From assembly GCA_963733375.1 (NCBI GenBank), contig CAVTDB010000026.1, positions 320,001-384,000 on the forward strand: a stretch of 64,000 nt of DNA. Reading direction: 5' to 3'. A program made the position numbers and the translations under genes. This DNA comes from Nitrospirota bacterium (GTDB lineage Bacteria; Nitrospirota; JACRHJ01). How positions within the stretch are numbered: the stretch's first letter is position 1; the number at the start of each line of letters is the position of its first letter. The notes beneath the pieces were generated by a model. The model made no database searches. It saw only the letters and a program-made list of their open reading frames with translations, and was not told where the DNA came from. Positions 4,823 to 22,572 of this stretch are shown in pieces.

Positions 4823-4880
4823 TTGACATTCCCGGACTCACCTTGTTATTATACGTAAGCTATTTTACGTAAACTATTTT
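4823..4880 (+). promoter_or_regulatory. sigma70 promoter of the PKS operon plus candidate operator
   Basis: TTGACA 4823-4828 and extended -10 TGtTATTAT (4844-4852), followed by tandem 14-bp repeats tacgtaagctattt / tacgtaaactattt (4852-4879). Confidence 0.65.
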
Positions 4881-4917
4881 AAGCCGTAATATGAGCCTTC
4901 TCGAAAGGGGGAGTGGC

Positions 4918-5478
4918 GTGGCAGGCTTTAATACCACGATGTCGAAAGAGGTGCTTCTTCTGGGACTCCTGAAGAGGAAGCCCATGTACGGCTATGAGAT
5001 AAAGCAGCTCGTGGACGAGGAACTCGTCCATGTCGCGCCCATCACCTCCGGCTCGCTGTATCATAACCTCAAAATCCTGGAAAAACGCGGCCTTGTGACC
5101 AAGAGCGTCCTCAAGGACACCGCGCACCCCGAAAAGCAGATTTACCATATCACGGACGAGGGCGTCCGCACCTTCGACAGCCTCCTTCAGGAGAACATTA
5201 CGAACTTCGAGCGTCCGCACCTGGCGCTTGACATATCCTTCTATTTCTTAAGGGAATCGGATGCGGGGCAGTTCCTTGATCAGCTCCGGGAACTCAGGGT
5301 ACGGCTTAAGGAGTATCACGCTGAAGCGGAGAGGTTTAAGGACGAACTGGCATCGAAGGGCGCGCCGGAAAATATGCTTTTCATCCCCGCGCATTACCTC
5401 GCGCACTCGGAGGCGGAGATAAAGTTTCTGGAAGGAATAATCGGCAGACTTGAGGCCGGAAGGGAAGGGGCTGCATGA
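4918..5478 (+). CDS. PadR-family transcriptional regulator
   Basis: LLGLLKRKPMYGYEIK, SGSLYHNLKILEKRGLV and IYHITDEG winged-helix motifs. Start is GTG 4918 or ATG 4939. Confidence 0.9.
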   Translation: MAGFNTTMSKEVLLLGLLKRKPMYGYEIKQLVDEELVHVAPITSGSLYHNLKILEKRGLVTKSVLKDTAHPEKQIYHITDEGVRTFDSLLQENITNFERPHLALDISFYFLRESDAGQFLDQLRELRVRLKEYHAEAERFKDELASKGAPENMLFIPAHYLAHSEAEIKFLEGIIGRLEAGREGAA

Positions 5479-6884
5479 AGTTCGAACTGGCCTGCAACTG
5501 GGACCCGGCGCTCCTTGAAGGTCTTGAAGGCGCCCCGAAGGTGGAGCTGTTCGGCGGCATTCCCGGAAGCCTTATCGCGGGGGGCAGGGCGTCGTTCGTC
5601 GCCCCGGAAGTGACGGAAGCCGACGCCGAAAAATACATCGCCGCCGCACGCGAAGCCGGGCATTCTTTCAATTTCCTCCTGAACGCCTCCTGCCTCGATA
5701 ACAGGGAGTACAGAAAGGACGAGTTCGAGAAGATACTCCGCCATGTAGAATGGGTGCAGGCGACCTCCGCGGACTGGGTGACGGTCACAATCCCCTACCT
5801 CCTGCAGATAATCAAAAAACATTATCCGTCATTGAAGCTCGTCGTTTCTTCCTGGGCGAGGGTGGAGAGCGTACGGAAGGCCCAGTACTGGGAGGAGATG
5901 GGCGCGGACGCTATCGTTTTGTCCGAGGAGATAAACCGCGATTTTAAAACCCTGGCGGCCATTCGCAGGGCGGTAAAATGCAAGCTTATCCTCATCGCCA
6001 ACCCCGGCTGCCTGTACGGATGCCCGCGCTCTTTCTACCACGCGAACGTCATGACACACGGCTCCCAGGGCAATCATTCCTCCGAAGGCTTCCTGGTTGA
6101 CCACTGCTATTTCTCCTGCACGAAGGACAAGATAAAAAACCCGACGGAGCTGATAAAGATACGCTGGATACGCCCCGAGGACGTGGAAGATTACGAGATG
6201 ATCGGCATTGACTGCCTCAAGATTATAGACCGGTACAAGACCACCGGGACGCTGCTTTCCTACCTGAAGGCATATACCGGCGGGCGGTTTGACGGGAACC
6301 TGGTGGAGCTTTTGAACCTTCCCCGCAAGAAGGCGTTCCTGCCCGCGAATGTAAAGTATCTCCTGAGGGATGAATATATAAATACGTCTAAATTAATGGA
6401 GTTCGCGGACATCACGGATTACCCGGTGACGGAAGGTCTGGTCCTGGATAACTCGAGGGTCCCGTCGAACTTCTTAAGCTTCTTCAAGACCAAGGACTGC
6501 GCGACGAGCGACTGCGAAGAGTGCGGGTACTGCGCCCTGATTGCCAAGAGGGCGCTTACGGTGGACAAGGCGCTGACGGGGGAGGCGGCGGGGAGGTACG
6601 AGGCGCTTTTGGAGTCGCTCGTTTCCGGTGAGATTTACCGGGAAGAGCCGGAGCCGGCGGCTGGCGAATGGGACGCCGAAGCGGTGACGGCGCACAAAAA
6701 ACTCCTTGATTTCGTGCCCGCGGTTTTCCGTTCGACCGCCGGGAAAAAAGTGTCCGCGGAGGTAAATGTCTTAAGCGGCGGGAAAGTAGGCCCGGACGAT
6801 ATTTACGCCGCATGGCGGAGGGCGACGCCCGCGCCGTTTAAGAAGATGGTAGAGGACAAGATCGCGGAGCTGAAGAATTGCTGA
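5475..6884 (+). CDS. peptidase U32-family Fe-S protein with C-terminal DUF2621/PCP_red-like domain
   Basis: FNFLLNASC, EINRDF..L..IR, ANPGCLYGCP...H, WIRPEDV..Y, KI.DR. Extra CxxxxCxxCxxC motif, then a helical domain from W at 6669. Confidence 0.8.
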   Translation: MKFELACNWDPALLEGLEGAPKVELFGGIPGSLIAGGRASFVAPEVTEADAEKYIAAAREAGHSFNFLLNASCLDNREYRKDEFEKILRHVEWVQATSADWVTVTIPYLLQIIKKHYPSLKLVVSSWARVESVRKAQYWEEMGADAIVLSEEINRDFKTLAAIRRAVKCKLILIANPGCLYGCPRSFYHANVMTHGSQGNHSSEGFLVDHCYFSCTKDKIKNPTELIKIRWIRPEDVEDYEMIGIDCLKIIDRYKTTGTLLSYLKAYTGGRFDGNLVELLNLPRKKAFLPANVKYLLRDEYINTSKLMEFADITDYPVTEGLVLDNSRVPSNFLSFFKTKDCATSDCEECGYCALIAKRALTVDKALTGEAAGRYEALLESLVSGEIYREEPEPAAGEWDAEAVTAHKKLLDFVPAVFRSTAGKKVSAEVNVLSGGKVGPDDIYAAWRRATPAPFKKMVEDKIAELKNC

Positions 6885-7396
6885 ACCACCACTTCGTGGA
6901 GATAAAGGCGCCCTTGGAGAGGATATTCGAAGAAATCATCCTCTGGGGTGAAAGCAAGTGGTGGCCTGATGAATCGCCCATGAAGTACAGCCGCGAAGAA
7001 AAGGGAGAGATAAAGGTCGGCACAAGATTCCATCAGAAAGTGCATAGGCCGTTCGCGCCGGAATGGGACGTCGAGGTAACCTCCATCGTCCCCGGACGCG
7101 AGGTCTCGAGGAAATTCATCAACGGGATGTTCAGGGGCACGGACAAGGTATATATAATCCCCAACCGCGGGTTCAACGAGGTCCATTTCCTGATGGACTA
7201 CGAAATAGTCGGGAATTTAAACCGCATCTTGTGGGCGCGCGTTTACCGGCGGATGCATGACGATAATATAAAACTGATTCTGCGCGCGCTGAAGGCGAGC
7301 CTTGAGGGCGAGGAAGTCTCGAAGCAAGAGGATTGGCTTTCTCCTGAAGAGCAGGACAGGAGACGTTTCTTCAAATCATTAATAAGGAGACATTAG
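6878..7396 (+). CDS. SRPBCC/START-fold protein (polyketide cyclase 2-like)
   Basis: VEIKAPLERIF..W..WWP start, VGTRF, C-terminal helix. Overlaps the U32 gene. Confidence 0.7.
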   Translation: MLNHHFVEIKAPLERIFEEIILWGESKWWPDESPMKYSREEKGEIKVGTRFHQKVHRPFAPEWDVEVTSIVPGREVSRKFINGMFRGTDKVYIIPNRGFNEVHFLMDYEIVGNLNRILWARVYRRMHDDNIKLILRALKASLEGEEVSKQEDWLSPEEQDRRRFFKSLIRRH

Positions 7397-7639
7397 ATGG
7401 ACTGGGAGACTGGGGCGCGGACGAAATTTGAAAAAATGATATCTATGATCCCATTTTTTCAGCGGAAGATGGCGGAGAGACTGGCGGGGAAGAAGGCGGA
7501 AGAATACGCGCAGGAACGCGGCGCGGCGCAAGTCGAAGAGCACCATATAGTAGCCGCGTTGATTGCCGAGACCCCGGCGCCGTTTCAGAGCAGTATGCGG
7601 GACACGGCCAGGACCGCGGGATTCGATATGCCGTCGTAA
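7397..7639 (+). CDS. stand-alone DUF2621/PCP_red-like small helical protein
   Basis: W...A...FEK...IP...R..A...AE..A.ERG...V...ETPAPF, homologous to the C-termini of the U32 and radical SAM proteins. Confidence 0.75.
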   Translation: MDWETGARTKFEKMISMIPFFQRKMAERLAGKKAEEYAQERGAAQVEEHHIVAALIAETPAPFQSSMRDTARTAGFDMPS

Positions 7640-7755
7640 CTCTCCTTTTTGCCACTCCTTAAGAAGGGGCAGAGGAGGATGGATTTGGTCTTAAATATCA
7701 ATAAATTTTTTCCTTAATCCCCCTCTTGGGTTAAGAGGGGGACAGAGGGGGCGTT
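7640..7755. repeat. intergenic C/G-run palindromes (REP-like)
   Basis: ccccctctt-gggtt-aagaggggg hairpin at 7719-7741 and a weaker one near 7655-7669. Confidence 0.45.
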
Positions 7756-7758
7756 ACT

Positions 7759-9625
7759 ATAAATTCCCGGATTTTATATATAGATTTATCTTCCGGGACT
7801 TCCGAAATAAAGGACATTCCGGAAAGCCTCCTGCGCAAATATATCGGCGGGCGGGGGATAAACAGCGCGCTGCTCTTTGAGAATACAAAAAAAGGCCTGG
7901 ACCCTTTAAGCCCGGAGAACCCGTTGATATTCGGCGCCGGCCTGCTGACCGGAATGCCGGGGCCGTCCTCCGCGAGACTGACCATCACCGGCAAGAGCCC
8001 GGAGAGCGGTCTTTTAGGCGACGCGAATATCGGAGGAGAGTTCGGATGCGCTTTAGCCTCCACGGGCGTCAGGCATCTGTTCATCACGGGGAAAGCAAAG
8101 CGGCCCGTTTACCTGCTTATTAAAAAAAATGGCGACGGGACATCCGCCGAAATAAAGGAAGCGTCGCATATCTGGGGCATGGACACAGTTCGAAGCGCAG
8201 GAGGTTATAAAAGAGGAGCATGGCGATAATGCGCATGTCGCCTGCATAGGCCCGGCCGGCGAGAACCTTGTCCGCTTCGCCTGCGTCATGCACGGCAGAA
8301 AGAACGCCGCGGGCCGCACCGGGATGGGCTGTCTGATGGGGGCCAAAAATTTAAAAGCGGTTGTGGCGGTAGACGCCGGGAAGGTCAAGCCGCACGACCC
8401 GGACGGTTTCGCGGCCCTTACCCATGAAATAAATTCGAAGCTCCGGACGGAATTCCTTACGCAGGACTTGGCGCGCTTCGGGACGGCGCATCTATATAAC
8501 GTAATAAATACGAACATCGAGATGGGCCGGACATATAACGGCCTCTCGACGAAAATGAAAGAGCCGGGTGACCTTGGCCCGGAGACGCTGGAAGCCCGGT
8601 ATTATTCGGGCAAACGCGGCTGCAGGCACTGCGCGGTAGCGTGCAGGCACTCGTATAAGATAACCGAAGGAAAACATGCCGGGCTGACAGGCGAAGGCCC
8701 GGAATACGGCATCATGGGACATATGGGGCCGGTGCTCGGGATAAACTCCGCCGAGGCGGTGCTCATGTTGAACGACAGGCTTAACCGCCTCGGTATAGAC
8801 GCAAGCTCCGCCGGCAACATAATAGCGTGGGCGATAGAATTATATAAAGAGGGTTTTATCGGAGACGCCGAGACCGGCGGGATGAAGCTGGACTGGAACG
8901 ACCCGGAGACGGCCGCCTTGCTTCTGGACGATATTGCATACAGAAGAGGGTTTGGAGACGTCCTGGCGGACGGCGCATCGGAGGCGTCGGCTAAGTTCGG
9001 AGATGACTCGGCCGGGCGCATGATCTGGGTGAAGGGCCTTCCGCAGTCGGACCCGGTAGACCTCCGGTTCATCAAGGCGTTCGCCCTTGGCGTCTCCACC
9101 GCGACCCGCGGCGCGGACCACCTTCGAAGCCGCTGCCCCTGGGAGGCGTTCGAATTCGATAAGGAATTTCTGGCGGGAATTTATGGCGGGCCGGTGGAGC
9201 CGGACCCGCTGAAATATGGCGGCAAGGGCCGGGTGGTCTGGTGGTGGGAAAGCTATCTCGCGCTCTTCGACGCGCTGGGGCTGTGCAAGCTCCTGGCCTT
9301 CCACACCTTGCCGGAGCCGGGCGTATTCGGCTTCGATGTATTCAGCGACTTAGTCAGGACGGGCAGCGGGATGGAGATAACGCCGGAGGAGATATTCGCG
9401 GCGGGACACGCTGTAACGGACGTGGAGCGCAGGTTCATCTGCCGCGAGGGCGTGGGACGAAAAGACGATTACCCGCCCATGAGGTATTTCGAGCCGCTTA
9501 TATGGCAGGACGGGCTGGACGACGAATCGCGGACGATGAAGCTCGACCGGGTATTGTACGACGGTATGCTGGACGAGTATTACGCCTGCCACGGCTGGGA
9601 CGTGAAAACAGGAAAACCTTATTAA
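7759..9625 (+). CDS. aldehyde:ferredoxin oxidoreductase family (W/Mo-pterin) protein (indel near 8188)
   Basis: RILYIDLS, YIGGRG, LDPLSPENPLIFGAG, KSP, CIGPAGENLVRFA, GRTGMG..MGAKNLKA, CxxCxxxC, EGPEY, RGADH, DALGLC, MLDEYY..GWD. Confidence 0.9.
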
Positions 9626-9708: not shown

Positions 9709-10708
9709 ATGAAGATAGCGGTAATAGGCGCGGGGGCAATCGGGTGCGTGGCGGGGGCGCTTCTCCATGAGAAGGGCCACGCGGTTACCCTTGTTAGCCG
9801 CGACCCGCGCCAGGTCCGGGCGATTAACCGCGAAGGCCTGTCGCTTGACGGCATTTCGGCAAGGAATAATTTTGTCATATATGCCGCAAGGTCGCTGGAG
9901 TTCATTCCCGACCTGGCGCTCCTCGCGGTAAAGACGCAGGACCTGGAGACGGCATGCAACCAGATTGCGGGCATGGGCGATTTCCCGGCGCTGACGATGC
10001 AGAACGGCCTGATGGCCGACGAGATAGCCGGAAGCATCCTTGGCAGGGAGCGGATCATTTCGTCGGTCGTCATGTTCGGGGCGACATATAAAGAGCCGGG
10101 GCATGTAACGTATAACTTTCCCGGCGGCCTCGTTATAGGCAAGGCGTTCGGCCCGGACGGCGGCGGCATCGTAGAGAAGGCGAAGAATATGATGTCCGGG
10201 TCTTTAGAGGTGCGCGTAGCCGAAAACATCCAGGCCATGCACCGCGCGAAGCTGATACTGAACTTAAATAACGCGCTTGCCTGCGTACTGGGGAAGAGCC
10301 TGCAGGATACGTTTTCGGATAAACGGTATGTGCATATTGGGGCTGTCGATGATGCGCGAAGCATGGGAGGTTTTCGAATCCAGCGGGATGGAGATGGCCG
10401 ACCTCCCGAACCTGCCTCTGGAGAAATTGAAATCTCTGCTATACGCCCCGGAGGAAGTAGGGGCGCAGATTTACGGCAATATCATGCGGGGCCTTTCCCA
10501 CCTCCCCCTTCTCGGCTCCGTCCTGCAGAGCGTCATGCGGGGCCGCGCGTCGGAGGTGGATTATTTAAACGGCGAAGTCGCGAGGGCGGCTGGGAAGATG
10601 GGGCGGGAGGCAAAGTTGAATTCAAAGGCGGCGGAGCTGGTCAAGGAAATCGAAAATATAAATCAATTTCTATCAATCGAAGAGATGCTAGCGAGGTTCG
10701 GCTTATGA
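9709..10708 (+). CDS. ketopantoate reductase (PanE/ApbA) family oxidoreductase (indel near 10330)
   Basis: IAVIGAGAIG, LAVK, MQNG, KL..N..N. The shifted frame has GS.LQS..RGR.SEVDYLNGEV. Confidence 0.85.
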
Positions 10709-10968
10709 TGGAGTTTCCGGGTTTTCTGCTGACGGTGGACAGTCTTCAAAAAGAATGTTTCAAGGGATATAAAGTGGGTGATTCTTTTGAGGTAAAGGAC
10801 TTCGTGACGCCGCCCGACGGCTTCTGCGCCGGGGCGTATCATTCGCTCTTCCCGGTCATTTATGCCTGGACATTCGGCGCGGAATTCCCTTTCAAGGACG
10901 GGGAAGGGTGCGTCAGGACGACATGCCCGGACGGCGGGAAACTGACGTTCAAGGTGAGGAAATTATAA
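10705..10968 (+). CDS. TIGR04076-like small Cys-containing protein 1
   Basis: C..GYKVGD.F, P.GFC..AYH.LFP, FGA.FP, TCPDG...F. Confidence 0.75.
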   Translation: MMEFPGFLLTVDSLQKECFKGYKVGDSFEVKDFVTPPDGFCAGAYHSLFPVIYAWTFGAEFPFKDGEGCVRTTCPDGGKLTFKVRKL

Positions 10969-11237
10969 TGGCTAATCCCAAAAAAATGGTCATATCGGTC
11001 GAGGAAGTTTCCGGGCCGTGTTTTTATAAATACGAGCAGGGACAGGAGGTGGAGGTCCTGGGACTTCGGACGCCGGAAGGTTTCTGCGGCGCGGCGTACC
11101 ATACGCTGTTCCCCGTGCTCTTCGCCCTGAACTTCGGCGCGAAGTACCCCTTCATGGAAGACCCGAATTCCATCAACACCGTGACCTGCCCGGACGGCGG
11201 GTACGTGCGGTTCAAGGTCAGGAGGGTGGAGGGTTGA
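10968..11237 (+). CDS. TIGR04076-like small Cys-containing protein 2 (paralog)
   Basis: Same C...GFC..AYH.LFP...TCPDG pattern. TAATG overlap with copy 1. Confidence 0.75.
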   Translation: MANPKKMVISVEEVSGPCFYKYEQGQEVEVLGLRTPEGFCGAAYHTLFPVLFALNFGAKYPFMEDPNSINTVTCPDGGYVRFKVRRVEG

Positions 11238-12491
11238 ATCTCCGCAGGGTCGTCATAACAGGCCTGGGCGTCATCGCGCCGGGAGGCATCGGTAAAGACG
11301 CCTTCTGGGATTCCATGATAAACGCGCGGACGCAGACCGGGCTTATTACCGCATTCGATACCTCCGGGTTCCTTTCGAAGGTCGCGGCGGAAGTGAAGGG
11401 GTTCAACCCTGCCGCCTTCGGCATCTCATATGAAGAGGCCTCGGGGATGGACCGCTATCTGCAGTTCGCCCTGGCCGGGGCGAAACTGGCCGTGGAGGAC
11501 GCCGGGCTGGAATTCGGCGGCCTGGACGGAGAAAAGTGCGGAGTGGCGCTGGCTAACGCCATATGCGGGACGAAATGGATGGAGGAGGAGTTCCTGCGCG
11601 TTACCGGCAACGGACATGGGCCGATCGACCCGGCCCTCGCGTCGCCGTATCTGTACGATGCGTCCATATTCAATTCTCCCGCCAACTTCATAGCCGCGCG
11701 CTATGGCTTGAAAGGCGGGGCGTGCGTCATATCCACCGGCTGCACGGCCGGGACGGACTCGGTCGCCTATGCGTATGAAAATATCCAACTCGGTTTATGC
11801 GACATGATGATAACCGGCGCGTCCGAGGCCCCGATTACGCCGATAGCCCTTGCCGCATTCGACGTGATAAAGGCGCTCTCGAAGCATAACGACGAGCCCG
11901 GGGCGGCGTCCCGTCCTTTCGACAGGACGAGGAACGGGTTTGTCCTGGCCGAGGGCGCGGGGATACTGGTACTGGAGGAATACGGGCACGCGGTGAAGCG
12001 CGGAGCGAAGATATACGCGGAGATAGCGGGTTTCGGCTCCACGTCCAACGCATTTCACATGACGGATCTGCCGAAGGACGGCGAAGCCCTGGCCCGGTCA
12101 ATAAAAATGGCTATGGACGAGGCGCGGGTCAATGCCGACGACGTGGATTACATAAGCTCTCATGGAAGCTCCACGGAACAGAACGACGTCTTCGAGACGA
12201 ACGCGATAAAGACGGCGCTTGGGGAACATGCCTGGCGGGTGCCTGTCAGTTCCATTAAGATCCATGATAGGACATCCGCTTTCCGCGGCGAACTCCATCG
12301 AGCTTGCGCTTTCGGCGATGGTGATGGAGCGGGGCGTAATCCCGCCGACAGTGAATTACCGTGAGCCGGACCCTGCATGCGACTTCGATTATGTGCCAAA
12401 CGTGGCGCGGGATAAAAAGGTGGACGTGGTGATAAAAACGAGCAGCGGGTTCTCCGGGATCCATTCGTCAATGGTCTTGAGGCGGGCATGA
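11234..12491 (+). CDS. type II PKS ketosynthase alpha (indel near 12258)
   Basis: RRVVITGLGV.APGG.G, STGCTAG active Cys, SRPFDRTRNGFVL.EG, NAFHMT, SHGSST.QND, VPVSSIKSMIGH, CD.DYVP..AR. This is the aromatic KS-alpha pattern rather than FabF. Confidence 0.92.
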
Positions 12492-13694
12492 GACGCGCGG
12501 TCATAACAGGCATAGGGGTGGTAAGTCCGGCGGGCAACTCGCCTGAAGAATTATTCGACAGGCTCTCCTCGGGCGAGGGCTTCACGGGCGAGATCAGCCG
12601 CTTCGACGCTTCGCGCTACCCGTCGCGTCATGCGGGGCTGGTACATGATCCCGGCGGGGAAGAGATATTTTCCAAGAGGCTCCTTAAGAAGCTGGACAGG
12701 TTCTCGCACATGGCGCTCTCCGCCTCCGACGGGGCGATTCAAAGACAGCGGGATAAACCTGGACGCCGAGGACAAAAACCGGGTCGGGATAGCCTTCGGC
12801 AACGCCCTGGGCGGCTGGTCGTTCGCGGAGGAGGAACTGCGGGACCTCTGGACTCACGGCCTTCGTGAAGTCAGCCCGTACCAGGCGACCGCATGGTTCC
12901 CGGCGGCGCCGCAGGGCCAGATATCCATTTTCTACGGTATAAAGGGTTTTTCCAAGACCATAATCTCCGACATCGCCAGTTCGCATCTCGCTATCGCTTA
13001 CGCCGCGCGTGCCATTCAAACGGGCAAGGCGGACGTGATGTTAGCTGGCGGCACCGAAGCGCCGGTATCGCCTTACGCGCTTCTGTGCTGCAACACCTCC
13101 GGGGAGCTTAGCCTGACCGGGAGCTACAGGCCCTTCAGCAAGGGCCGCGACGGGTATATAATCGGCGAAGGGGCGGCCGTACTCGTCATCGAAGAGATGG
13201 AAAAGGCGGTCGCGAGGGGGGCCAGGATATACGCGGAGGTAAAGGGTTTTGGGCACACAAGCGACGGGATGCACCCGACAATGCCTGATCCGTCAGGCGA
13301 CGGCATGGCCCGCGCCATCGGACTAGCGATGCGGCAGGCCGCTGTCTCTCCATCCGAAATCGGGATGGCTATCCCATCCGCGAATGCGGGGAAAGAAGCC
13401 GATTTATCCGAGGGAAGGGCCCTTTTAAAAATCTTCGGAAACAGGGCTTCTGAACTGCCGATTTATTCGCCGAAGCCGCAGACGGGGAATTTACTGGGGG
13501 CGTCCGGCGCGCTCGATACGGCGTTTGCCTGCATGGCGCTTGGCAGAGGTGAGACGCCGACCCTCAAGGTAATTGATCCGGAATTTGATTTCTTTGACGG
13601 CGGCGGAAAAAAGAAGATCGATAAGCGGGATATCATTATAAATTCCATCGGGCGTGGCGGGGTAAACGCCTGCCTTTTAATCGGAAAGCCTTAA
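12488..13694 (+). CDS. type II PKS chain length factor (KS-beta) (indel near 12738)
   Basis: KS paralog without the catalytic Cys or the two His. GGW.FAE.EL..LW..G...VSPYQ..AWF.AA.QGQISI and KPQTGNL.G..GALD motifs. Confidence 0.9.
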
Positions 13695-13708: not shown

Positions 13709-13946
13709 ATGACGGTAGAAGAGAGGGTCGAAAAAGTTTTCGAGGAAATAGGCATAGACAAAGCTGAACTTCGTCCGGAAGTCGACTTTGAAAAGCGATC
13801 TCGGGATTGACTCGACGGAGATGGTGGAACTGATGGTCGCGCTGGAAAAAGAATTCTCGGCCAAAATCCCCAACGGCGTGATAAACGGCGGGAGCACGGT
13901 CCGCGAGATAATCGACTATTTTCTAACCGTGGCGGCCAGGTCTTGA
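13709..13946 (+). CDS. acyl carrier protein (not in ORF track; +1 indel near 13779)
   Basis: MTVEERVEKVFEEIGID... then in the shifted frame STLKSDLGIDSTEMVELMVALEKEF..KIP......TVREII, carrying the phosphopantetheine Ser motif. Confidence 0.88.
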
Positions 13947-14713
13947 AAATAATCGACCTGAGCACCCCGATAGACGACCTGGCGCCGGAGCCTTTTCCGG
14001 TACAGGTGACCCGGATTGGCCATGAGGAGGGTGCGGAGAGGGTAGGGGAGAAATTTCCCGGAGAGAAGAAAATCGGCGGCGATACTTTCCCCGGCGGGAT
14101 GTTCCTGTCCCATGAAACCGTCCAGGCGTCGGTGCACTGCGGGACGCATGTGGACGCGCCGTGGCATTTCGGGCCGGAGTCGGAAGGACGGCCGGCGAAG
14201 AAGATAGACGAGGTCCCACTTGAATGGTGCTATGGGGACGGTTTTGTAATTGACATGAGGGCCCTGCCGCCGGGCGGAGAGATAAAGCCGGAGGACGTGA
14301 GGCGGGGCTTGAGAGAGATCAATTACCAGCCGAAACCGGGCGACATCGCGCTTATCAGGACCGGGGCGGACAGCTATTTCGGCACAAAGGAATATTTTCT
14401 GAAATTCGCGGGCCTGAATGTCGATGCGGCGGAATATTTATTCGGTCTTGGAATCAGGACCATCGGGACCGACGCGCCGGGCCTGGACAGGCCTTTTATG
14501 GATATGGTCGCGGATTATCAAACGACGGCGGACAACTCGAAACTCTGGCCGGTACACATGCTGGGAAGAAAAAAAGAATACTGTCATATAGAGAGGCTCG
14601 CAAACCTTGGCGCGCTCCCGAGGGCGCACGGATTCAAGTTCGCCTGTTTCCCGGTAAAGATAAAAAACGCGGGCGCGGCATGGGCACGCGCCGTGGCTAT
14701 ATTCGAGGACTAA
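13943..14713 (+). CDS. polyketide second/third-ring cyclase (kynurenine formamidase-like cyclase family)
   Basis: IIDLS, HCGTHVDAPWHF, IDEVPLEW..G.G, IGTDA..LDRP, EYCHIERLANL. DpsY/OxyN/ZhuJ-type by motif and position. Confidence 0.85.
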   Translation: MKIIDLSTPIDDLAPEPFPVQVTRIGHEEGAERVGEKFPGEKKIGGDTFPGGMFLSHETVQASVHCGTHVDAPWHFGPESEGRPAKKIDEVPLEWCYGDGFVIDMRALPPGGEIKPEDVRRGLREINYQPKPGDIALIRTGADSYFGTKEYFLKFAGLNVDAAEYLFGLGIRTIGTDAPGLDRPFMDMVADYQTTADNSKLWPVHMLGRKKEYCHIERLANLGALPRAHGFKFACFPVKIKNAGAAWARAVAIFED

Positions 14714-14723: not shown

Positions 14724-15152
14724 ATGGCACACACCAAAAATTCCATATTCATAAACGCGCCTTATGGGAGCGTGTTCGACATTACGAACGACATCGAGCG
14801 CTGGCCCGAGCTTTTCGACGAGTATTCGGACGCGAAAATCCTTTCGCGCGAAGGAAACAAAATAACCTTCCAACTTACCAACAAGGAAGGGAAGTCCTGG
14901 CGCTCCAGCCGCATCCTGGACAAGCCCGGGCATAAATGCTCCGCGAAACGCGAGGAGCCGATGTTCCCGTTCAAATACATGGACCTCCTCTGGACATACG
15001 TCGAGAAAGACGGCGGGGTGGAGATGACCTGGGAGCAGGACTTCTCCATGGACGAAAAAGCGCCGGTGGACGATAAGACGGCCGAGGCCCGCATAAACGA
15101 GCACTCGAAGAAGAACATGCAGAGGATAAAAGAAATAATCGAGGGAATATGA
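14724..15152 (+). CDS. monodomain aromatase/cyclase (TcmN/WhiE-ORFVI-like)
   Basis: HT.NSI.I.AP...FD.TNDIERWPELF.EY, W.S.R, PF.YM...W.Y, M.W.QDF.M...AP.DD, IN..S..M..IK. Confidence 0.9.
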   Translation: MAHTKNSIFINAPYGSVFDITNDIERWPELFDEYSDAKILSREGNKITFQLTNKEGKSWRSSRILDKPGHKCSAKREEPMFPFKYMDLLWTYVEKDGGVEMTWEQDFSMDEKAPVDDKTAEARINEHSKKNMQRIKEIIEGI

Positions 15153-15875
15153 AGATACTTGGCATCTGCGGGACGCACAAGAGGGGGAAGCAGAAATCCG
15201 CCAGCGATTATTTTCTGCGCAAGGCCCTTGAGGCCGCCGAAGAAAAAGGGGCCGAGTCGGAAGTTATCCGCCTGATAAATTACAACGTGAAGCCATGCCT
15301 CGCGTGCAACCGCTGCCTCTGCGGCCTTACCTGCCCTTTGCTCGAAGACAAGGACGACGACGGGAAGCTCATTTTCGATAAAATGTCGGAGTCGGACGCG
15401 TTTATTTTTTCGTCCCCGGTCTATGCCTATCAACAGCCCGCGATAGTCATGAACCTTTTGCACAGGACCCGCCCCTTGCACGAGCAGGAGCGTTCGGAGA
15501 TATGGGGGACGACTATCACCGCATACCCGAAAAACCCTTTCAAGGGCGCCCCGGTGGGCAACCTCGCGGTAGGCGCGGCGCTCGGGATGGAGGGTGCGCT
15601 CTATTACCTGTTCCATTACCTGAAGGCGATGACGGCGACTTCTGTCGCGTGCGCGGGGATCGCTCTGATGGACGCGGAGATGAGGAACCTCTGCATGGTG
15701 GGAAAGCGTTTCGCGATGGAGCATCCCGGTTTTAAAACACTGCTGGACAAGCCGATGCCGTCTTACGAGGAGAATAAACCCGCCAGCAATGATGGCGCGT
15801 GCGGTGGGCGAGCAGGTGTTCGACGTGTGGAATTCGGAGCTTTTTCAAACGATAAAAGAAGTGCTGAGATATTGA
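15149..15875 (+). CDS. iron-sulfur flavoprotein / flavodoxin-fold FMN reductase (indel near 15783)
   Basis: MKILGICG, CLACNRC..(x5)C, D..I.SSPVY. The corrected frame ends at TGA 15875. Confidence 0.8.
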
Positions 15876-16853
15876 TGATATTCGACTCTCATTTCCATCT
15901 GTTGCCGGATGAGGTAATCAAGCACGCCTCGTTCTACAACGACTCCTGGGGCGGTATGGACGGCCATCTTCGTGCAATGGACGAGGCCGGTGTCTCGCGC
16001 GCGCTTATCTCTTATCCGACTACCGATTTTCATCTGAAGGCCGCCCTTGCGGAAACGGATGCGGCGCGGGTATATAACGGGGCGGTGAAGGAAATAGCCG
16101 AGCGGTCGGCGGGACGGATTTCGTGGCTTGGGTCAGTGCCCTTGACAGGGCCTGACGAGATGGTCTCTCTGGGCGAAGAGGCATTGGCGCAAGGCGCGCG
16201 CGGGTTTACCATGCCGACGAACAGCGGCGGGATATATCCGGACGACCCGCGGTTCCTGCCTTTTTTCGAGAAGGCCGAAGGGTGGGGAGCGCCGATATTT
16301 TTTCATCCCACCACGCTTACTCCGTTCGGGTCCGAGAGAGCTGCGCCACCCGCTGATAACGCCCGTGTTCCAGTACGCGTTCGATACCACGCTCTGCCTC
16401 GCCAGGGTTATCGACTGCGGCCTGCTGAAAAAGTTCCCCCGGTTGAAGCTTGTGTTCGCGAGCTTCGCGGGCGTGATGCCGTTTCTTGCGGGCAGATACG
16501 GCAGGACGTACAAGATGCTCCTTGGCCGGGGGATAGTGAAGGACATGGGCGAGGAGCCGGGTGAGACGTTGAAGAAAATTTACGTGGACACTTCCGGCAC
16601 GGCGGACGTAAAGATGCTGGAGCTGGCGATAGATATATTCGGCGAGGACAGGGTGCTGTGGGGAAGCGATTTCCCGGCGAACCGTGAGATAAAGGCGTCG
16701 ATAGACGCCGTTAACGCTCTAAGTTTGAAGCCGCCTTCCAAACAAAAAATTTTGCACGAGAATTTAGATAAGCCTTGCTCGGTTTTTAACCCCGGTTTTC
16801 TTTGGTTACTTTCTTTTACCCAAAAGAAAGTAACGAAAGGTTTTGAATGTTAA
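15875..16853 (+). CDS. amidohydrolase-2 family protein, probable aromatic-acid decarboxylase/hydrolase (indel near 16337)
   Basis: DSHFH metal motif, MDEAGV..A, FFHP, KFP.LK, YVDTS, DRVLWGSDFP. Confidence 0.8.
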
Positions 16854-18052
16854 TAATAAAAAGGTTTTGATCTTCGGCGCGGGGATCGCGGGTCTTTCGA
16901 CGGCCTATTACCTGCGGAAGGAAGGCTGCCAGCCGGTCGTCTACGAGAAGAGGCCGGATGCGGGCGGACGGTTCGCGACGCTGGAATATGAAGGGGTATA
17001 TATAAATAAAGGCGCGATGATGTTCGCGCCGGCGCTGAACCCGCACTTTACGGAACTGATCAGGGAACTGGGCGTGTCGCACGAGCTTATCAGGCTTAAA
17101 AAATTTGCCCTCCAGATAGGCGATGAAATCACCGGCCTGGATTCCTGGTCCATGTTCAGGAGCGGCTTTTTTACTTTTTCCGAGTACATGCAGTGGAGGC
17201 GGCTGAAGAAGTTTATAAAGGGCCTGGACTTCCGATCTTGAGAGCTGGGACCCGAAGCTTCAGGAGCTTCATTCGATTTCGCTGGAAGAGTTCTGCGTCC
17301 GCGAGATGGGCTATTCGCAAAAGATGCTGGACTACATCGTCCAGCCGTTCTCCAGCTTCGGGTATATCGACCCGCCGCACATTGCCGCGGACCATGGGCT
17401 GTTCCTGTTCGCATACGGCGATTCGCCCGTGCGCGTCCCGCACAAGGGGATGGCGGAGGTGGCGGCCGAGCTTGTCCGGAGGATGCCGGGCGTCGTAAAG
17501 ACGGGGTATAAGGTAGAGAGGGTAAAGAAAAATGCATCAGGGACTTTTGATGTAAACCTTAAGGGGCCGGAGGGAGCGCCTTTGAAGGAGACGGCGGACT
17601 GCGTGGTGTTCGCCACCGGCCAGGAGAGCCTCGGCAAGGTGATGCCGGAGATAACGGTGGACGTGAAATCCACTAAGACGCGCGGAGTGATATTCGAGTC
17701 CCGCACCCCCCGGTACGGCAAATACGACGTCCTGCTTTTTTCCAAATATAAAAACCGCCACGGCATACACGGCGGAGAGATGAAACACCTGCCTGACGGC
17801 AGGACCATCGCCGGGATGTTCATGTACAGGCCGGACGCGGACATCGAGGCCGTGTTCGGGAAATATAAAGAACTGCCGAAGGTCGGCTGGTCTCCGGCGA
17901 TAACGCTCATCCCGCCGGGGAGCAGGACGAGAGGCATCGAGACAGAGGTTCCGGGCGCATTCCTGGCCGGAGATTTCTACCGGCTTCCGTGCATCGAGTC
18001 ATGCGTTTACACCGCGAAAAAAACGGTGCAGGCGATAAAGGGGCTTGCCTGA
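16843..18052 (+). CDS. FAD-dependent oxidoreductase (amine oxidase/HemY-like fold; indels near 17235-17290)
   Basis: GAGIAGL.TAYYL, YEK...AGGR, KGMAEV..EL, C-terminal FLAGD......IESCV.TA. Confidence 0.78.
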
Positions 18053-18054
18053 CA

Positions 18055-19416
18055 ATGTCATATGACGCGGTAATAATCGGCGCCGGTCTTGGCGGGCTTT
18101 CCGCCGGAGCGTATCTTTCGCGCGCCGGGAAAAAAGTGCTGGTGCTGGAGAAGATGTCCGAGCCGGGCGGGCGATGCCGGACGGTGGAGCTTATGGGGCA
18201 CCGCTTCGACATCGGCGCGGACTATTTCGGCAAAAAATTACTCGGCGTATTCTCGGAGCTTGGGAAGAGAAAAGAGCTGGAGCCGGTATGGTTCAAGGTG
18301 CGGGCGAATTGCGCGGGTTCCTCCATGACCATCCCGCCGGGCCTGCATACGCCTAAGGACCTTCGCGGCATGGGGATGGGGACGAAGGATATCGGCCGCT
18401 TCGGCCTTAATATGGGCGGGCAGATATTATTCAACCGCTTCAGGAAAATCTCCAATTACAAAGAACTGATAAACAGGATTACCGACAACCCGAGCCTCCG
18501 GGAGATACTGAATGTCGGCGCGTTCTTCTCCGGGAACGAACCTGAAAACATGCCGTCTCACTGGTTTAACCTGGTCTTCGGCAGGACGTATGGATACGAC
18601 AGGCCGTTCATACCCAGGGCCGGTGCGGGGAGGCTGCCGGAGCTTCTGGCCGACGTCATCCGCGAGAGCGGCGGCGGCATAGTCTATAACGCGCAGCCGA
18701 AAAAGATAATGATAAGCGACGGCAAGGCGAAGGGCGTCCTGCTGGACGGCAGGGAGATAGAGGCGGAGAACGTCATAAGCGGGACGGGCATTTTGCAGAC
18801 CGTGCACTCACTCGCGGGCAAGGAATATTTCCCGCAGGGGTTCCTGAACACGCTGGGCTACTACAAAGAGGGTTTTTGCATGGCGAGCGTGTTCACGGTG
18901 TTCAAGAGGAGCGCGAAAATTACTCCGGGCGTGCACCTCTACGCGATGTTCCCGAAAAGTGTCGGCGGGATGTTCAGGACCCTGAAAGACGGCTCCTTTC
19001 CGCAAGATAACATGTATGTCATCTCCGTCCCCGGCGCGGCGCACGACAGCGGCGGGGAGCATCTTGCCGGCACCATAAAGTTCCTCGTGCCCAAGGGCAT
19101 TATCGCAAGAGAGGCTATCGAGGCCGAGGCCGGGAAAGTAATGGCTAAAATGGATTCGCTGATTCCGGGCTTCCGGGAGAGCGTAATAGAGAGCAGGCTA
19201 TACACGCCGATGGACTATGCGGTTAATTTCGGTTTTGTCAGTTCCGTCTCGCCTGTCGCCGAGAGCGTGCATTACGAGAAGATGGATACAAATACGCCGG
19301 TCAAGGGATTATACTGCGTAGGCTCCACGGTGCTTCCGGCAGGCGGCTGTGCCGCGTCGTCGGTGCTGTCCGGCAGGGCCGCCGCGAGACTTATAATAAA
19401 GAATGGCGGAAGTTAA
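18055..19416 (+). CDS. phytoene desaturase-family FAD/NAD(P) oxidoreductase
   Basis: YDAVIIGAGLGGL.A..L...GKKVLVLEK...PGG, FD.GA, L.....GG.I, TP.D, TPVKGLYCVG....GG......SGR.AA. Confidence 0.85.
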   Translation: MSYDAVIIGAGLGGLSAGAYLSRAGKKVLVLEKMSEPGGRCRTVELMGHRFDIGADYFGKKLLGVFSELGKRKELEPVWFKVRANCAGSSMTIPPGLHTPKDLRGMGMGTKDIGRFGLNMGGQILFNRFRKISNYKELINRITDNPSLREILNVGAFFSGNEPENMPSHWFNLVFGRTYGYDRPFIPRAGAGRLPELLADVIRESGGGIVYNAQPKKIMISDGKAKGVLLDGREIEAENVISGTGILQTVHSLAGKEYFPQGFLNTLGYYKEGFCMASVFTVFKRSAKITPGVHLYAMFPKSVGGMFRTLKDGSFPQDNMYVISVPGAAHDSGGEHLAGTIKFLVPKGIIAREAIEAEAGKVMAKMDSLIPGFRESVIESRLYTPMDYAVNFGFVSSVSPVAESVHYEKMDTNTPVKGLYCVGSTVLPAGGCAASSVLSGRAAARLIIKNGGS

Positions 19417-19489: not shown

Positions 19490-20080
19490 ATGAAAAAAAT
19501 GCTTTTAATAATGGCCGTCGTCGCACTTTTGATACCTGTTAATGCCTTAGCCGGGTCGAGTGGCCCGGGAGTCCTCGACAAAGAGAACGTGATGACGGAC
19601 AAGAGCCTCGCGAAGTACAAGAGCATCGGGATCAAGATATTCTCCACGGACAACATAGAGTACAATAACGTGGACGACGAGGAGAAGCAGAGAGATGAAG
19701 GGCTACCTGAAGGGACTGGCAGGAGATGCTCGCAAGGACCTGTGAAGAACGAGCTTAACGGGGACAGGGTCACCGCCTTTATAATCGATCCGGACGGCAA
19801 GAACGCCGGCAAGGCGGACATGATAATCGAAGGGCGAGTTATCGCAGATAAACATGGGAAGCGCATTCAGCAGGATGGTTCTGGGGGATGGGCGCCGGCG
19901 GGCGGGGGTCACCGTGAAGGGCAAGCTGATAGACGCCAGGACCGGCAAGGAACTCGCGACAGTTCGAGCACGAAAGCACGTCCGGACTCCAGGGCGGCGA
20001 CAAATGGTCGATGGTGGCAAACAGGGTTAAGGCCACGGGCGACAAGATAGACTGAGTTCGTAGAGAAACTGAGCAGATAA
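19490..20080 (+). CDS. exported protein, DUF4410-like (several indels)
   Basis: AGGAGG RBS and signal peptide MKKMLLIMAVVALLIPVNALA. Stitched frames give IIEG....INMGS..SR...GMGAG...VTVKGKLIDA.TGK.LA. Confidence 0.55.
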
Positions 20081-20116
20081 AGGCCGCACAAGTCCCGGCA
20101 TTCTGGAGTATAAGGT

Positions 20117-21679
20117 TTGCGAACTTTTGTATCCGTGAACAGGGAGACCGAGCCTTTCACCGCGGCCCCGCTCGGCCTTGCGCTCGTCGCTCAAGCGCTC
20201 CGCCTTGCGGGGCACGACGTGCATGCGCTCGACCTCCTTTTCGCGGAAGACCCGGAAGCTGAGCTGAAGCAGGCAATCAGTTCTCTCTCTCCGGATTTCA
20301 TAGGCGTCTCGATTCGGAACATCGAGTCTTCCAGCCGTTTTCTCCTGCCGGATTACAAGGAAGTCATCGGGCTGATAAAGCGGGAGACGGAGGCCCCTGT
20401 CGCTTTGGGGGGGCCGGGATATTCCATCATGCCGAAGGCCGCCCTTCAATATCTGGGAGCGGATTACGGGATAGCCGGAGAGGGAGAAGTGGCCATGCCG
20501 ATGCTTGCGGACGCGCTTTCCGGGAAGACGCCTTTCTCGAAGGTACCCGGCCTTTGCCGGTTCGAAGGCGGCTCCTATATCCAGAACCCGGCAAGTCCGC
20601 TCAGCCTTGATACGCTCGGCCTGCCCGCGTGGGAGTTCTTCCCGGCCGAAAATTACGACATGATAGGGGTCCAGTCTAAACGCGGCTGTTCCTTCTCGTG
20701 CGTCTATTGCACCTATCCGGGGCTGGAAGGAAGAGAAATGCGCCTGCGGCCCCCGGAGGAAGTGGCGCGCGAGATGAGCGGCGCGATAGACGCCGGACTG
20801 ACGGCCCCTTTTTATTTCGTGGACAATATATTCAATAATCCGCCCGGCCACGCCGCCGCCGTATGCGATGAAATAATTAAACGCGGGATTAAAGCTTCCT
20901 GGGGATGCCTTGCAAGCCCCGTCGGACTGGACGGCAGGCTCCTTGATAAGATGAAGCGGGCGGGGTGCGAGAGCGTGGAGGTGGGCGCGGACTCCCTGTC
21001 CGACAGGATGCTCTCAAAGCTCGGTAAGAAGTTCGGGAAGGACGAGGCCGTGAACGCCGTCCGGGCCGCGAAGGAGGCGGGGCTGATGAGCCTCGTGTTC
21101 CTGCTCCTGGGCGGGCCGGGCGAGGACGGGGATTCGCTTAAAGAGACCTTCGACGCCCTTGAGGAGCTGCAGCCGGATAAAGTGTTCGCCGTCGCCGGAG
21201 TGCGGATATATCCGGGCACGCCCCTTGCCCGCATAGCCGAAAATGAGAAATTGATTTCGCCCGAAGACCCGCTTATGGAGCCAAAGTTTTACGTCTCGGA
21301 CAAGCTGGGCGACGGCCTTTATTCCATCGCGGGGGAATATTTCAAGACTCATCCGGACTGGGTCTGCTATCCCGCCAATGGTATTTTACAGGGAATGCAT
21401 CCGAAAGGTATCAGTTCGGGAAGGGGTCTTCATTCACAACCGAAGGATGCCCTGTGGGACGATTTCGCATTGGAGGTGTTCGAGAAAGTCCTGCTGGAGG
21501 TCCCGGCGCTCCTTCGGCCTATTGCGCGCAAGGCCATCCGGAAAAAGGCGCAAGGGGCGGTAAAATCCGGGTCGGTAAAAGCCTCCGACGTAAAGGACGC
21601 TTTTCTCTCCGAGACGCCCCGGCCTTTTCAGGGGCCGATGAGGGAAGCCTTAAGGAAACTGGGGCTGGCCGATGGTTAA
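20117..21679 (+). CDS. B12-binding radical SAM protein with C-terminal DUF2621/PCP_red-like domain
   Basis: PLGL..A..L...GHDV..LD and PDFIGVSIRNI (cobalamin domain), KRGCSFSCVYC, FVDNIFN, RIYPGTPL. Helical tail from W at 21455. Confidence 0.9.
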   Translation: MRTFVSVNRETEPFTAAPLGLALVAQALRLAGHDVHALDLLFAEDPEAELKQAISSLSPDFIGVSIRNIESSSRFLLPDYKEVIGLIKRETEAPVALGGPGYSIMPKAALQYLGADYGIAGEGEVAMPMLADALSGKTPFSKVPGLCRFEGGSYIQNPASPLSLDTLGLPAWEFFPAENYDMIGVQSKRGCSFSCVYCTYPGLEGREMRLRPPEEVAREMSGAIDAGLTAPFYFVDNIFNNPPGHAAAVCDEIIKRGIKASWGCLASPVGLDGRLLDKMKRAGCESVEVGADSLSDRMLSKLGKKFGKDEAVNAVRAAKEAGLMSLVFLLLGGPGEDGDSLKETFDALEELQPDKVFAVAGVRIYPGTPLARIAENEKLISPEDPLMEPKFYVSDKLGDGLYSIAGEYFKTHPDWVCYPANGILQGMHPKGISSGRGLHSQPKDALWDDFALEVFEKVLLEVPALLRPIARKAIRKKAQGAVKSGSVKASDVKDAFLSETPRPFQGPMREALRKLGLADG

Positions 21680-22572
21680 AGGGACTCATTCATACCGGCT
21701 GGACAAGCACTCTATCTACTGGTGGATCTCCTGGGGGGCGAGGTATATCCCGACCCCTCTCGCCAACTTGATAGGGGACAGGATCGCCGACTGGCTATTC
21801 TATTATAAATCCGAAAATATCGTCCCCGAGCAGGTAAGGAACCTGGACCACGTCCTGGGCCCGGACGTCCCGCATCGGGAAAAGTTCAAAACCGTGCGGA
21901 AACTCTGGCGCAGCCACGGGAGATTTCTGCTGGACCTCTTCCGTTTCGAGCGGATGAGCGACGCCGAGATAGCCTCGCGCGTGCCGGAATTTTTAGGCCT
22001 GGACAATATTCAAAAAGCGGTCGAGGACGGGAAGGGCGCGATAATCTTGACCGCACACATAGGCCATTGGGAGCTGGGCGGGATACTGCTGAAATACCTC
22101 GGGTTCAAGTTAAACGTCGTCCAGCACCTCTACGACTCGGAGGAGCAGAACCGCCTTTTAGACAGGAACAAGGATATCAGGGGGATAAAAATTATCTCCA
22201 CCAACGACCCCGCCGGGTTTGCCCTGAGCGCGTATAACGCCCTGAAAAGAAATGAACTCGTGGCGATTCAGGGGGACAGGGACTTAAGCAGGTCCGGCAT
22301 CAGGGTGGATTTCTTCGGGAAACCGGCGGCGTTCCCCAGGGGGCCGGCGCTTCTGGCCATGAAAACCGGCGTGCCGCTTATACCCGCGTTCACGATAATG
22401 GGAAAGGACGGCAAATACCATCCCGTCGCGGAGCCGCCGATAGAGATGACGGCTACCGGGGACACTGACGCAGGACCTGCGGGTAAACATAAGGAAAATC
22501 GCCGCTGTATTTGAAAAATACGTGCGCAGCCACCCTGAGCAGTGGTTCAATTTTTATTATTTTTGGGATTAA
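21672..22572 (+). CDS. lipid acyltransferase (LpxL/HtrB-like LPLAT; indel near 22470)
   Basis: TAHIGHWE (Hx4E), QGDR, VDFFGK.A.FP.GPA.LA. Corrected C-terminus is HPEQWFNFYYFWD. Confidence 0.85.

Follow-up and report, generated by a model that had tools for sequence, protein, structure and literature searches.

Among aromatic type II polyketide synthases (PKSs), the tetracenomycin and WhiE spore-pigment systems of Streptomyces use cyclases of the TcmN/WhiE type, which fold unreduced chains. The clostrubin (clr) cluster of Clostridium, set beside our locus by description alone, encodes an aromatic type II PKS and comes from an anaerobe; to our knowledge, no U32, AOR or B12-radical SAM set has been described for it. 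The den, ant and pcy clusters share an architecture termed 'ancestral' and non-actinomycete; clostrubin is named in the same article, in which the dendrubin cluster of a strict anaerobe contains no oxidase or methyltransferase genes (PMC7693217). Anaerobic oxidation and methylation of aromatic polyketides are an open question. The present analysis concerns 20 genes in a single orientation (positions 4891-22514) in a 64,000-nucleotide stretch of Nitrospirota DNA, referred to as the window (G000:C26:320001-384000), from a metagenome-assembled genome of 2.39 Mb (26 contigs, 81% complete). On balance, these genes were judged to form a single operon that directs the synthesis of an aromatic type II polyketide, with the tailoring steps proposed below, in an uncultured, sulfur-cycling, diderm member of the Nitrospirota from peat and wetland.

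The operon matches the den, ant and pcy architecture (partial text of PMC7693217) in its ketosynthase (KSalpha), chain-length factor (CLF or KSbeta), acyl carrier protein (ACP), PF04199 and TcmN genes, in the Gram-negative or anaerobic nature of the hosts and in the lack of an ABM or FAD monooxygenase in the cluster. It differs in that its TcmN protein is single-domain and is encoded 3' of the PF04199 gene, in the Ile at the CLF active site and in the addition of U32, AOR, TIGR04076, Isf, B12-radical SAM and CrtI-like genes; at the sequence level this comparison covers AntD alone (296 bits with KSalpha, versus 311 bits for the actinorhodin KS). It resembles the tetracenomycin and WhiE systems in its aromatase/cyclase (117 and 108 bits) and in a KSalpha that is 48-53% identical, whereas TcmI, TcmJ, cupin and ABM oxygenase genes are lacking and the host phylum and tailoring set are others. 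No characterized cluster matching the operon was found among the sequences searched. A search of the literature on type II or oxygen-independent PKSs, Nitrospirota, Omnitrophota, Thermodesulfovibrionia and TIGR04076 returned no accessory set or product beyond a listing, as uncharacterized, of KS-CLF pairs of Nitrospirae and Candidatus Omnitrophica in a 2023 catalogue (partial text of PMC10132072), the supplements of which may list these loci. An earlier reading of the sequence alone (the first-pass annotation) had called the pathway undescribed and had framed it as a rare example from an anaerobe; the former stands in that no characterized cluster was matched, although the KS-CLF pairs of both phyla were already catalogued, and the latter gives way to a core that is common in Omnitrophota.

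Genes were assigned by Pfam, NCBIfam and PDB searches and with the intact copy of the locus in a sister species (G002, locus L018). The first gene encodes a PadR-family regulator (4891..5478, + strand, as for all features of the operon; PF03551, 63 bits) and overlaps the U32 gene by 4 nt; the last encodes an LpxL-type acyltransferase. The earlier description of about 20 co-oriented, mostly overlapping genes was borne out: 12 of the 19 junctions overlap or abut, start/stop codon overlaps run throughout and the widest gap is 119 nt (in the intact sister locus). The GC content (0.525-0.586) is similar to that of the flanks. A promoter-like site (TTGACA-18-TATTAT with a TG extension; 4823..4852, + strand, a consensus match alone) lies 5' of the PadR gene and a terminator-like hairpin (22528..22547, + strand, a weak motif match) lies past the last gene, with a further promoter-like site downstream of it at 22576-22605. 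These positions agree with the operon limits set by the first-pass annotation, in scans that were scarcely above shuffled sequences (15 promoter-like sites versus 9.7 ± 3.0; 25 terminator-like sites versus 22.5 ± 4.0).

In the window, single extra bases break the AOR, ApbA, KSalpha, CLF, ACP, Amidohydro_2 and CrtI-like 1 genes and the C-terminus of LpxL. Alignment with G002 gave 37 indel events in 4796-22517, mostly one-base insertions in the window and outside homopolymers. With at least eight genes broken, the cluster might be decaying, the frameshifts genuine and the operon a string of pseudogenes, but every operon gene is intact in the sister species (97-99% protein identity for nearly all), the bases at 10328, 12261, 12740, 16338 and 17233/17234 are missing from contigs of four independent peat/wetland runs (95-99% alike) and the essential gene bamA is likewise split (27240-29199); the source is, moreover, an incomplete metagenome-assembled genome. 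The frameshifts were therefore attributed to assembly errors, pseudogenization was rejected as exceedingly improbable and the operon should thus be functional. The intact G002 copies were used by reference for protein work.

The minimal PKS consists of KSalpha (11234..12491, broken at 12262; PF00109 and PF02801), CLF (12488..13694, broken at 12738; identified by KS-family searches), which overlaps KSalpha by 4 nt, and an ACP (13709..13946, broken at 13783; 48-53 bits against ACP models for the intact copy) with the serine motif GIDST. The Cys-His-His triad is kept in all nine KSalpha rows of the clade. In CLF, which is catalytically dead, the active-site Cys is replaced by Ile in the home family, by Ser in a second Nitrospirota family and by Arg in Omnitrophota, and both His residues are gone. 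In a maximum-likelihood tree (LG+G4, 34 rows) the nine KSalpha rows were sister to five Streptomyces type II PKS KSalpha sequences (support 100/98) and the seven CLF rows of the clade were sister to five Streptomyces CLFs (99/99). Outside these clades fell FabB, the FabF proteins of E. coli and B. cereus, the FabF-like gene of the genome itself, a highly reducing KS pair from Streptomyces and two further KS sequences. Against the PDB, the best FabF (264 bits) and an Iga11-type highly reducing KS (6KXD, 150 bits) scored below the actinorhodin and AntD enzymes; this score, the placement of the highly reducing pair (in a tree without an aryl-polyene reference) and the lack of dehydratase and SDR genes in the operon bear on whether the synthase might be of the aryl-polyene or highly reducing type. 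KSalpha was also searched against 72,556 plasmids, of which 838 records matched; the top matches were all Streptomyces type II PKS KSalpha sequences (47.6-52.9% identity, FabF reaching 41% or less) and adjoin genes for 'ketosynthase chain-length factor', TcmI cyclase and aromatase/cyclase.

Two further ketosynthase loci were noted in the same genome. One (G000:C8:38370-40617; L004, L005) pairs another KS with an inactive KS-like protein in which Asp replaces Cys and both His residues are gone; this pair sits on a long branch of uncertain placement in the tree. The other, 20-24 kb upstream of the window (G000:C26:296324-300380), contains a 744-aa open reading frame with a ketosynthase domain and a gene for cytochrome bd subunit I that is split by a stop codon.

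Downstream of the ACP, the operon encodes a PF04199 cyclase-family protein ('OxyN-type'; 13943..14713; 109 bits) with an HxGTHxDxPxH motif and a monodomain TcmN/WhiE-type aromatase/cyclase, a 142-aa SRPBCC protein (14724..15152) that aligns with TcmN (2REZ; 117 bits, E 5.5e-33) over residues 2-140 and with the WhiE ARO/CYC (3TVR) at 108 bits. The aromatic-type core claimed previously, and the KS/CLF placement with type II PKSs and apart from FabF that had been offered as its check, were thus upheld, and the 'DpsY/OxyN-like' label holds for membership of the PF04199 family and not beyond it. An Amidohydro_2 decarboxylase-like protein (15827..16853, limits approximate; broken at 16338 and near the end; PF04909) has non-oxidative aromatic decarboxylases as its best PDB matches (LigW at 71.9 bits, IDCase, ACMSD and gamma-resorcylate decarboxylase). 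An ApbA/PanE-like NAD(P)H reductase (9709..10708, broken at 10328; PF02558, 104 bits) passes the TIGR00745 subfamily score (147.8 versus 141.35 bits for the intact copy); in Omnitrophota its gene is kept directly 5' of KSalpha.

A non-aromatic product was considered at this point, namely that of a 'ladderane-type' or otherwise unusual fatty-acid or lipid pathway of the Kuenenia/Desulfotalea kind, built on a divergent FabF pair, a B12-radical SAM enzyme, phytoene-desaturase-like enzymes and an acyltransferase. The B12-binding radical SAM enzyme of the operon (20117..21679; PF02310 and PF04055, with a CxxxCxxC motif and a C-terminal PCP_red-like domain) scores 336.1 bits against TIGR04072 ('lipid biosynthesis B12-binding/radical SAM protein'), under the cut-off of 360; its combination with two amine-oxidase/phytoene-desaturase-like genes and an inactive KS paralogue recalls the loci of Rattray 2009 (partial text of PMC2649909), and an LpxL-type acyltransferase is present. 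Genome mining has also reported 'ladderane' clusters in Omnitrophota, which may be this PKS family under another label (partial text of PMC9902471). Such a pathway is nevertheless very improbable here, given the strong TcmN/WhiE match, the position of KSalpha and CLF within type II PKS lineages and the lack, in family profile searches of the operon, of a dehydratase, an enoyl reductase and a FabG-type ketoreductase; the FabZ/FabG/FabI set of the unusual fatty-acid systems has no counterpart, and aromatic-PKS cyclases are present instead. Judged from its sequence, the synthase is very probably an aromatic type II PKS.

Orthologues of KSalpha occurred in 11/401 sampled Nitrospirota genomes (5/162 genera, two families) and in 73/301 sampled Omnitrophota genomes; one protein of the family was labelled Syntrophaceae. 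The complete 20-gene set was present in four operon-spanning loci (L024, L028, L030 and L029) from three genera of the home family, and a fifth, which is cut upstream (L027), has the genes from AOR to LpxL. In the second Nitrospirota family, in which KSalpha is 63-65% identical, the genes have been rearranged. Two B12-radical SAM genes share a contig with two amine-oxidase-like genes, U32 and SRPBCC; a second contig has PCP_red, AOR, ApbA, two TIGR04076 genes, KSalpha, CLF, ACP, cyclase, TcmN-like and Isf genes, followed by unrelated signalling genes; on a third, U32, SRPBCC, PCP_red and AOR are joined. An orthologue of flavoprotein 2 lies 5' of U32 in this family, the B12-radical SAM genes of the cluster are of another type and the TIGR04072-like orthologue is on a separate contig. 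Because the linkage survives this rearrangement, the accessory enzymes quite probably act in the same pathway as the PKS. Among 41 relatives, U32 orthologues were found in 11, nine of which also have a KSalpha orthologue; of the remaining two, one is 65% complete and the other has a KSalpha fragment. Two genomes have KSalpha and no U32 orthologue, and both are fragmented (88% and 75% complete).

The four longer Omnitrophota loci keep the B12-radical SAM, PCP_red, ApbA, KSalpha, CLF, ACP and cyclase genes, the two that reach far enough also have TcmN-like and Amidohydro_2 genes, and an acyl-CoA ligase, a short-chain dehydrogenase/reductase (SDR) and an MFS transporter are added. The Omnitrophota loci examined have no U32, AOR, TIGR04076, Isf or LpxL gene, and a search with this U32 query detected no match in any of three Omnitrophota genomes; both results count against a shared pathway, as does the home-family synteny, which extends more than 15 kb past the operon, so that conservation within that family proves little. 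The expectation of the first-pass annotation that accessory and core genes would be conserved together thus held in the second Nitrospirota family for the U32, AOR, TIGR04076 and Isf-like genes and failed for them in the Omnitrophota. These observations would suit a composite locus, in which the core alone (B12-radical SAM, PCP_red-like, ApbA-like, KS, CLF, ACP, two cyclases and Amidohydro_2) makes the polyketide, and U32/SRPBCC, AOR/TIGR04076/Isf and CrtI-like/DUF4410/LpxL are co-transcribed modules for other redox or envelope-lipid tasks. The continuation of the home-family collinearity into bamA and lipid A genes and a paralogous methyltransferase/U32/SRPBCC/KS module elsewhere in the genome also fit such an arrangement, but in the second Nitrospirota family U32, SRPBCC, AOR, both TIGR04076 genes, Isf and amine-oxidase-like genes are reordered and still lie beside the core, the occurrence of U32 orthologues follows that of KSalpha among the relatives and start/stop codon overlaps run through the operon, and we regard it as unlikely.

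One Omnitrophota locus (L031, 840-18512) has genes for an acyl-CoA ligase, an MTA phosphorylase, an MtnA-like isomerase, an aldolase-SCP2 fusion and an aldehyde dehydrogenase 5' of the cluster; the cluster itself includes the MFS transporter and the SDR.

U32 proteins act as O2-independent hydroxylases in ubiquinone and RNA pathways (partial texts of PMC6747719 and PMC10990095). The operon encodes a U32-family Fe-S protein of 469 aa (5475..6884; PF01136, 45 bits against a cut-off of 22.4, the match spanning profile positions 2-95 of 233). Its AlphaFold model (pLDDT 63, with a confident N-terminal barrel) had the U32 protein 5D88 as its top fold match (E 1.8e-10, TM 0.68 on the target), four orders of magnitude better than generic TIM barrels. 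Two groups of four cysteines (C179/183/211/215 and C342/347/350/353) are invariant in seven orthologues and a paralogue, and the protein fell short of every NCBIfam model of a characterized U32 protein. The next gene encodes a 172-aa SRPBCC-like protein (6878..7396) without a Pfam match, the Atlas features of which scored 0.95 to SRPBCC/polyketide-cyclase clusters; a second SRPBCC protein had also been named in the first-pass annotation. This gene follows U32 in both Nitrospirota families and at a paralogous locus, so the pairing recurs in a separate genomic module. A predicted complex of the two proteins scored 0.00 against a mark of 0.32 and counts neither way.

The pair resembles the UbiT-UbiU-UbiV system (partial texts of PMC6747719 and PMC10990095) in having a U32 Fe-S protein beside a small lipid- or ligand-binding protein and a presumed aromatic substrate. 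It differs in having a single 469-aa U32 with two four-Cys groups of other spacing in place of a UbiU/V heterodimer and an SRPBCC instead of an SCP2 partner, and the U32 is no equivalog of any named U32 protein. By this analogy, the protein is tentatively put forward as a putative hydroxylase of the polyketide, a role that we hold to be possible but not the more probable one.

The paralogous module (G000:C1:~21500-24300; intact in L066, 8835-12597) comprises a UbiE-like methyltransferase, a U32 paralogue (37-47% identity), an SRPBCC protein and a FabF-like KS. In a relative (G004), the U32 paralogue is preceded, at a distance of about 1.2 kb, by a B12-radical SAM paralogue.

The AOR-family tungsto/molybdopterin oxidoreductase (7759..9625, broken at 8187; AFOR_N and AFOR_C) has the CxxCxxxC cluster motif and scored 286 bits against 1AOR versus 149 bits against BamB; a BamB-type ring reductase was dropped on these values. 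The codon at its start position (7759-7761) is ATA in the window and in G002, so that it is not an assembly error, and ATG (MNHKILYI...) in the third species of the genus and in two other genera; either ATA serves as a rare start codon here or the start codon has been lost. Two TIGR04076 proteins follow ApbA: protein a (10705..10968; 45.5 bits) and protein b (10908..11237, with a likely start ATG near 10968; 51.5 bits), in which C18, C40, H45 and C74 are invariant in 12 sequences. No PDB sequence match and no Foldseek match at E <= 0.001 was obtained for TIGR04076. With VIA-align, the confident model (pLDDT 84) gave middling matches to N-terminal domains of the XdhC/CoxI family (3ON5 and 2WE7; Z 6.9 and 6.6), which consists of molybdenum-cofactor insertion factors. 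From this modelled likeness the two proteins may act as cofactor helpers of AOR, a role that, being distinct from tailoring, would also fit the composite arrangement. An Isf-like FMN reductase (15149..15875; PF03358, 67.9 bits; CxxCxxCxC) carries the compact four-Cys motif CLACNRCLC at residue 50, which we take to be an Isf hallmark; no NCBIfam model matched it.

Two flavoproteins of the amine-oxidase/CrtI family complete the redox set. Flavoprotein 1 (16843..18052, broken at 17234; PF01593 and PF13450) has protoporphyrinogen oxidase as its best NCBIfam match (54 bits, under the cut-off), and flavoprotein 2 (17989..19416; PF01593, 69.7 bits) scores 96 bits with crtI_fam against a cut-off of 238; both fall short of every equivalog cut-off in NCBIfam. 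Some members of this FAD-dependent family, which includes protoporphyrinogen oxidase, use O2, and the two proteins could do so as well. The first-pass annotation had listed U32, AOR, iron-sulfur flavoprotein, TIGR04076 and B12-radical SAM genes, all of which are present; its statement that no ABM, P450, flavin monooxygenase, SDR or exporter gene is in the operon also agrees with family profile searches, in which P450, ABM, FAD_binding_3-type monooxygenase, SDR (adh_short) and transporter families had no match among the 20 products. Its wording 'apparently oxygen-independent' is not supported as it stands, since it overlooks the two flavoproteins; these, the ApbA-like reductase, Amidohydro_2 and the DUF4410 protein had gone unmentioned.

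The host is a diderm, as had been proposed: bamA, skp, lpxD, fabZ, lpxA, lpxI, an MsbA-like ABC protein and heptosyltransferases are encoded in the window. The accompanying description as a probable anaerobe should read 'anaerobe or microaerophile', because oxidase genes accompany dsrAB: dsrA and dsrB and a COX1-family haem-copper oxidase were found in 5/5 family genomes and cytochrome bd in 2/5. Genes of the MqnA/MqnD family were present in 5/5 genomes; the PKS is therefore not the only possible quinone source, and its role as a menaquinone replacement was dropped.

The oxidases and the two flavoproteins both count against a tailoring set that works wholly without O2. They would accord with an O2-requiring route, in which amine-oxidase-family flavoproteins or oxygenases encoded elsewhere oxidize the polyketide in a micro-oxic setting, other steps being left to the Fe-S and radical enzymes; flavoprotein 1 is, as noted, nearest to protoporphyrinogen oxidase. 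The dendrubin cluster of a true anaerobe, without oxidase genes of its own, offers a parallel, its authors placing these genes elsewhere in the genome (partial text of PMC7693217). Weighed against the lack of ABM, P450 and FAD_binding_3-type monooxygenases in the operon, the presence of dsrAB in every family genome and the peat, wetland or soil labels of the public runs containing the locus, this route seems distinctly improbable. AOR, B12-radical SAM, U32 and Isf-type enzymes moreover belong to oxygen-sensitive classes.

An 80-aa PCP_red-like protein (7397..7639; PF08369, 25.4 bits, under the 32.5 cut-off) shares homology with the final ~70 residues of the B12-radical SAM enzyme (21460-21676; 32-38% identity), being a stand-alone copy of that C-terminal domain. 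Its gene is kept beside the core in Nitrospirota and Omnitrophota, and in the latter it lies directly 3' of a B12-radical SAM gene.

Two products are of envelope type. An LpxL/HtrB-family acyltransferase paralogue (21672..22514, C-terminus shifted at 22472; PF03279, 127 bits) is encoded by a gene that shares 8 nt with the end of the B12-radical SAM gene. It is an additional copy: LpxL-family genes number three in each of four cluster-bearing genomes and one in a family member without the cluster (G003). A DUF4410-like protein with a signal peptide (19490..20050; Atlas 0.94 to DUF4410 clusters) precedes the B12-radical SAM enzyme. Neither was found in the second family's cluster or in the Omnitrophota loci examined. 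Retention of the product in the envelope, as suggested previously, is less well founded than was claimed, its basis being the LpxL paralogue, the periplasmic DUF4410 protein and the adjoining lipopolysaccharide (LPS) genes, and we regard an envelope-bound product as rather doubtful.

The DUF4410-like gene (19436-20121) is 54% identical to the sister's copy, with flanking genes at 97-98%, and copies across the family range from 46% to 90% identity to that of G002. These may represent two allele types, and the divergence looks like allelic replacement or diversifying selection.

Taken as one operon for an aromatic polyketide, the genes suggest the following course. The minimal PKS would form an unreduced poly-beta-ketone, which the TcmN-like and PF04199 proteins would fold into a polycyclic phenol, and Amidohydro_2 would take off the carboxyl group. 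The B12-radical SAM enzyme, with the PCP_red-like protein as a helper, may carry out C-methylation or another radical modification of the product. O2-independent hydroxylation of the ring might fall to U32, with the SRPBCC protein as a carrier, on the model of UbiU/V and UbiT (partial texts of PMC6747719 and PMC10990095). AOR, the two TIGR04076 proteins, the Isf-like protein and the two CrtI-like flavoproteins could provide low-potential ferredoxin- or flavin-linked redox steps (acid/aldehyde interconversion, dehydrogenation), and the LpxL paralogue, in the home family only, might attach either the product or an acyl chain to a lipid of the envelope. At its fullest, this proposal would make U32 and SRPBCC an O2-independent aromatic-polyketide hydroxylase and, together with B12-radical SAM methylation, AOR, Isf-like and CrtI-like enzymes, the first complete 'anaerobic tailoring' kit for type II polyketides, with a quinone-like, envelope-associated redox molecule as the product and a core synthase common in Omnitrophota; in this extended form it is a speculation that we consider more likely wrong than right. 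The operon sets concrete candidates (U32 with SRPBCC, B12-radical SAM, AOR and Isf), kept across two families, beside an aromatic PKS, and anaerobic tailoring thereby becomes testable. If the proposal is true, it would widen the scope of U32 proteins, most subfamilies of which have no function, and give a first hint at the role of the synthase in about a quarter of the sampled Omnitrophota species.

Several further points weigh against the proposal. The U32 cysteine spacing (CX3CX27CX3C and CX4CX2CX2C) departs from the published CX6CX15CX3/4C (partial text of PMC6747719), and the protein reached 25.2 bits with the TrhP model, for which the cut-off is 534. The Gln used for decarboxylative priming is absent from the CLF active-site position (0/7 clade CLFs), which leaves priming unexplained; it occurs in 3/5 of the Streptomyces reference CLFs and is thus not a universal feature of type II PKSs. 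A CLF fragment scored higher against FabF (197 bits) than against the act CLF (139 bits) in the PDB. The Streptomyces references of the tree come from uncharacterized plasmid-borne clusters labelled by RefSeq annotation alone, and the tree was built without aryl-polyene, Ant, Den and Clr references. Searched against plasmids, the PF04199 protein is closest to generic members of the cyclase family in non-PKS contexts (41-49% identity), which is why the 'OxyN/DpsY-like' label is valid at the family level only. No RNA run was among the public sequencing runs with the locus, and the polyketide product is itself predicted from gene content.

The remainder of the window was surveyed for context. The region 22644-27099, downstream of the operon and syntenic in three genera, contains a split radical SAM/SPASM gene, genes for the TPP-binding and POR-gamma subunits of a 2-oxoacid:ferredoxin oxidoreductase, and GNAT and HemN-like radical SAM genes. 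It is followed by an outer-membrane/LPS locus (27240-43948 and 47749-48807), which includes the split bamA, skp, lpxD, fabZ, lpxA, lpxI, GFO/IDH, DegT and MsbA-like ABC genes, two heptosyltransferase genes and a further LpxL gene at about 41988-42888. Between the two heptosyltransferase genes lies a low-GC insert (43986-47207; GC 0.38) encoding a DNA methylase and a protein of 757 aa that matches no Pfam family; the insert may be a restriction-modification island. A second low-GC block (52877-58500, - strand; GC 0.40-0.41) encodes glycosyltransferases and two sulfotransferase-domain proteins and likely serves a variable surface polysaccharide.

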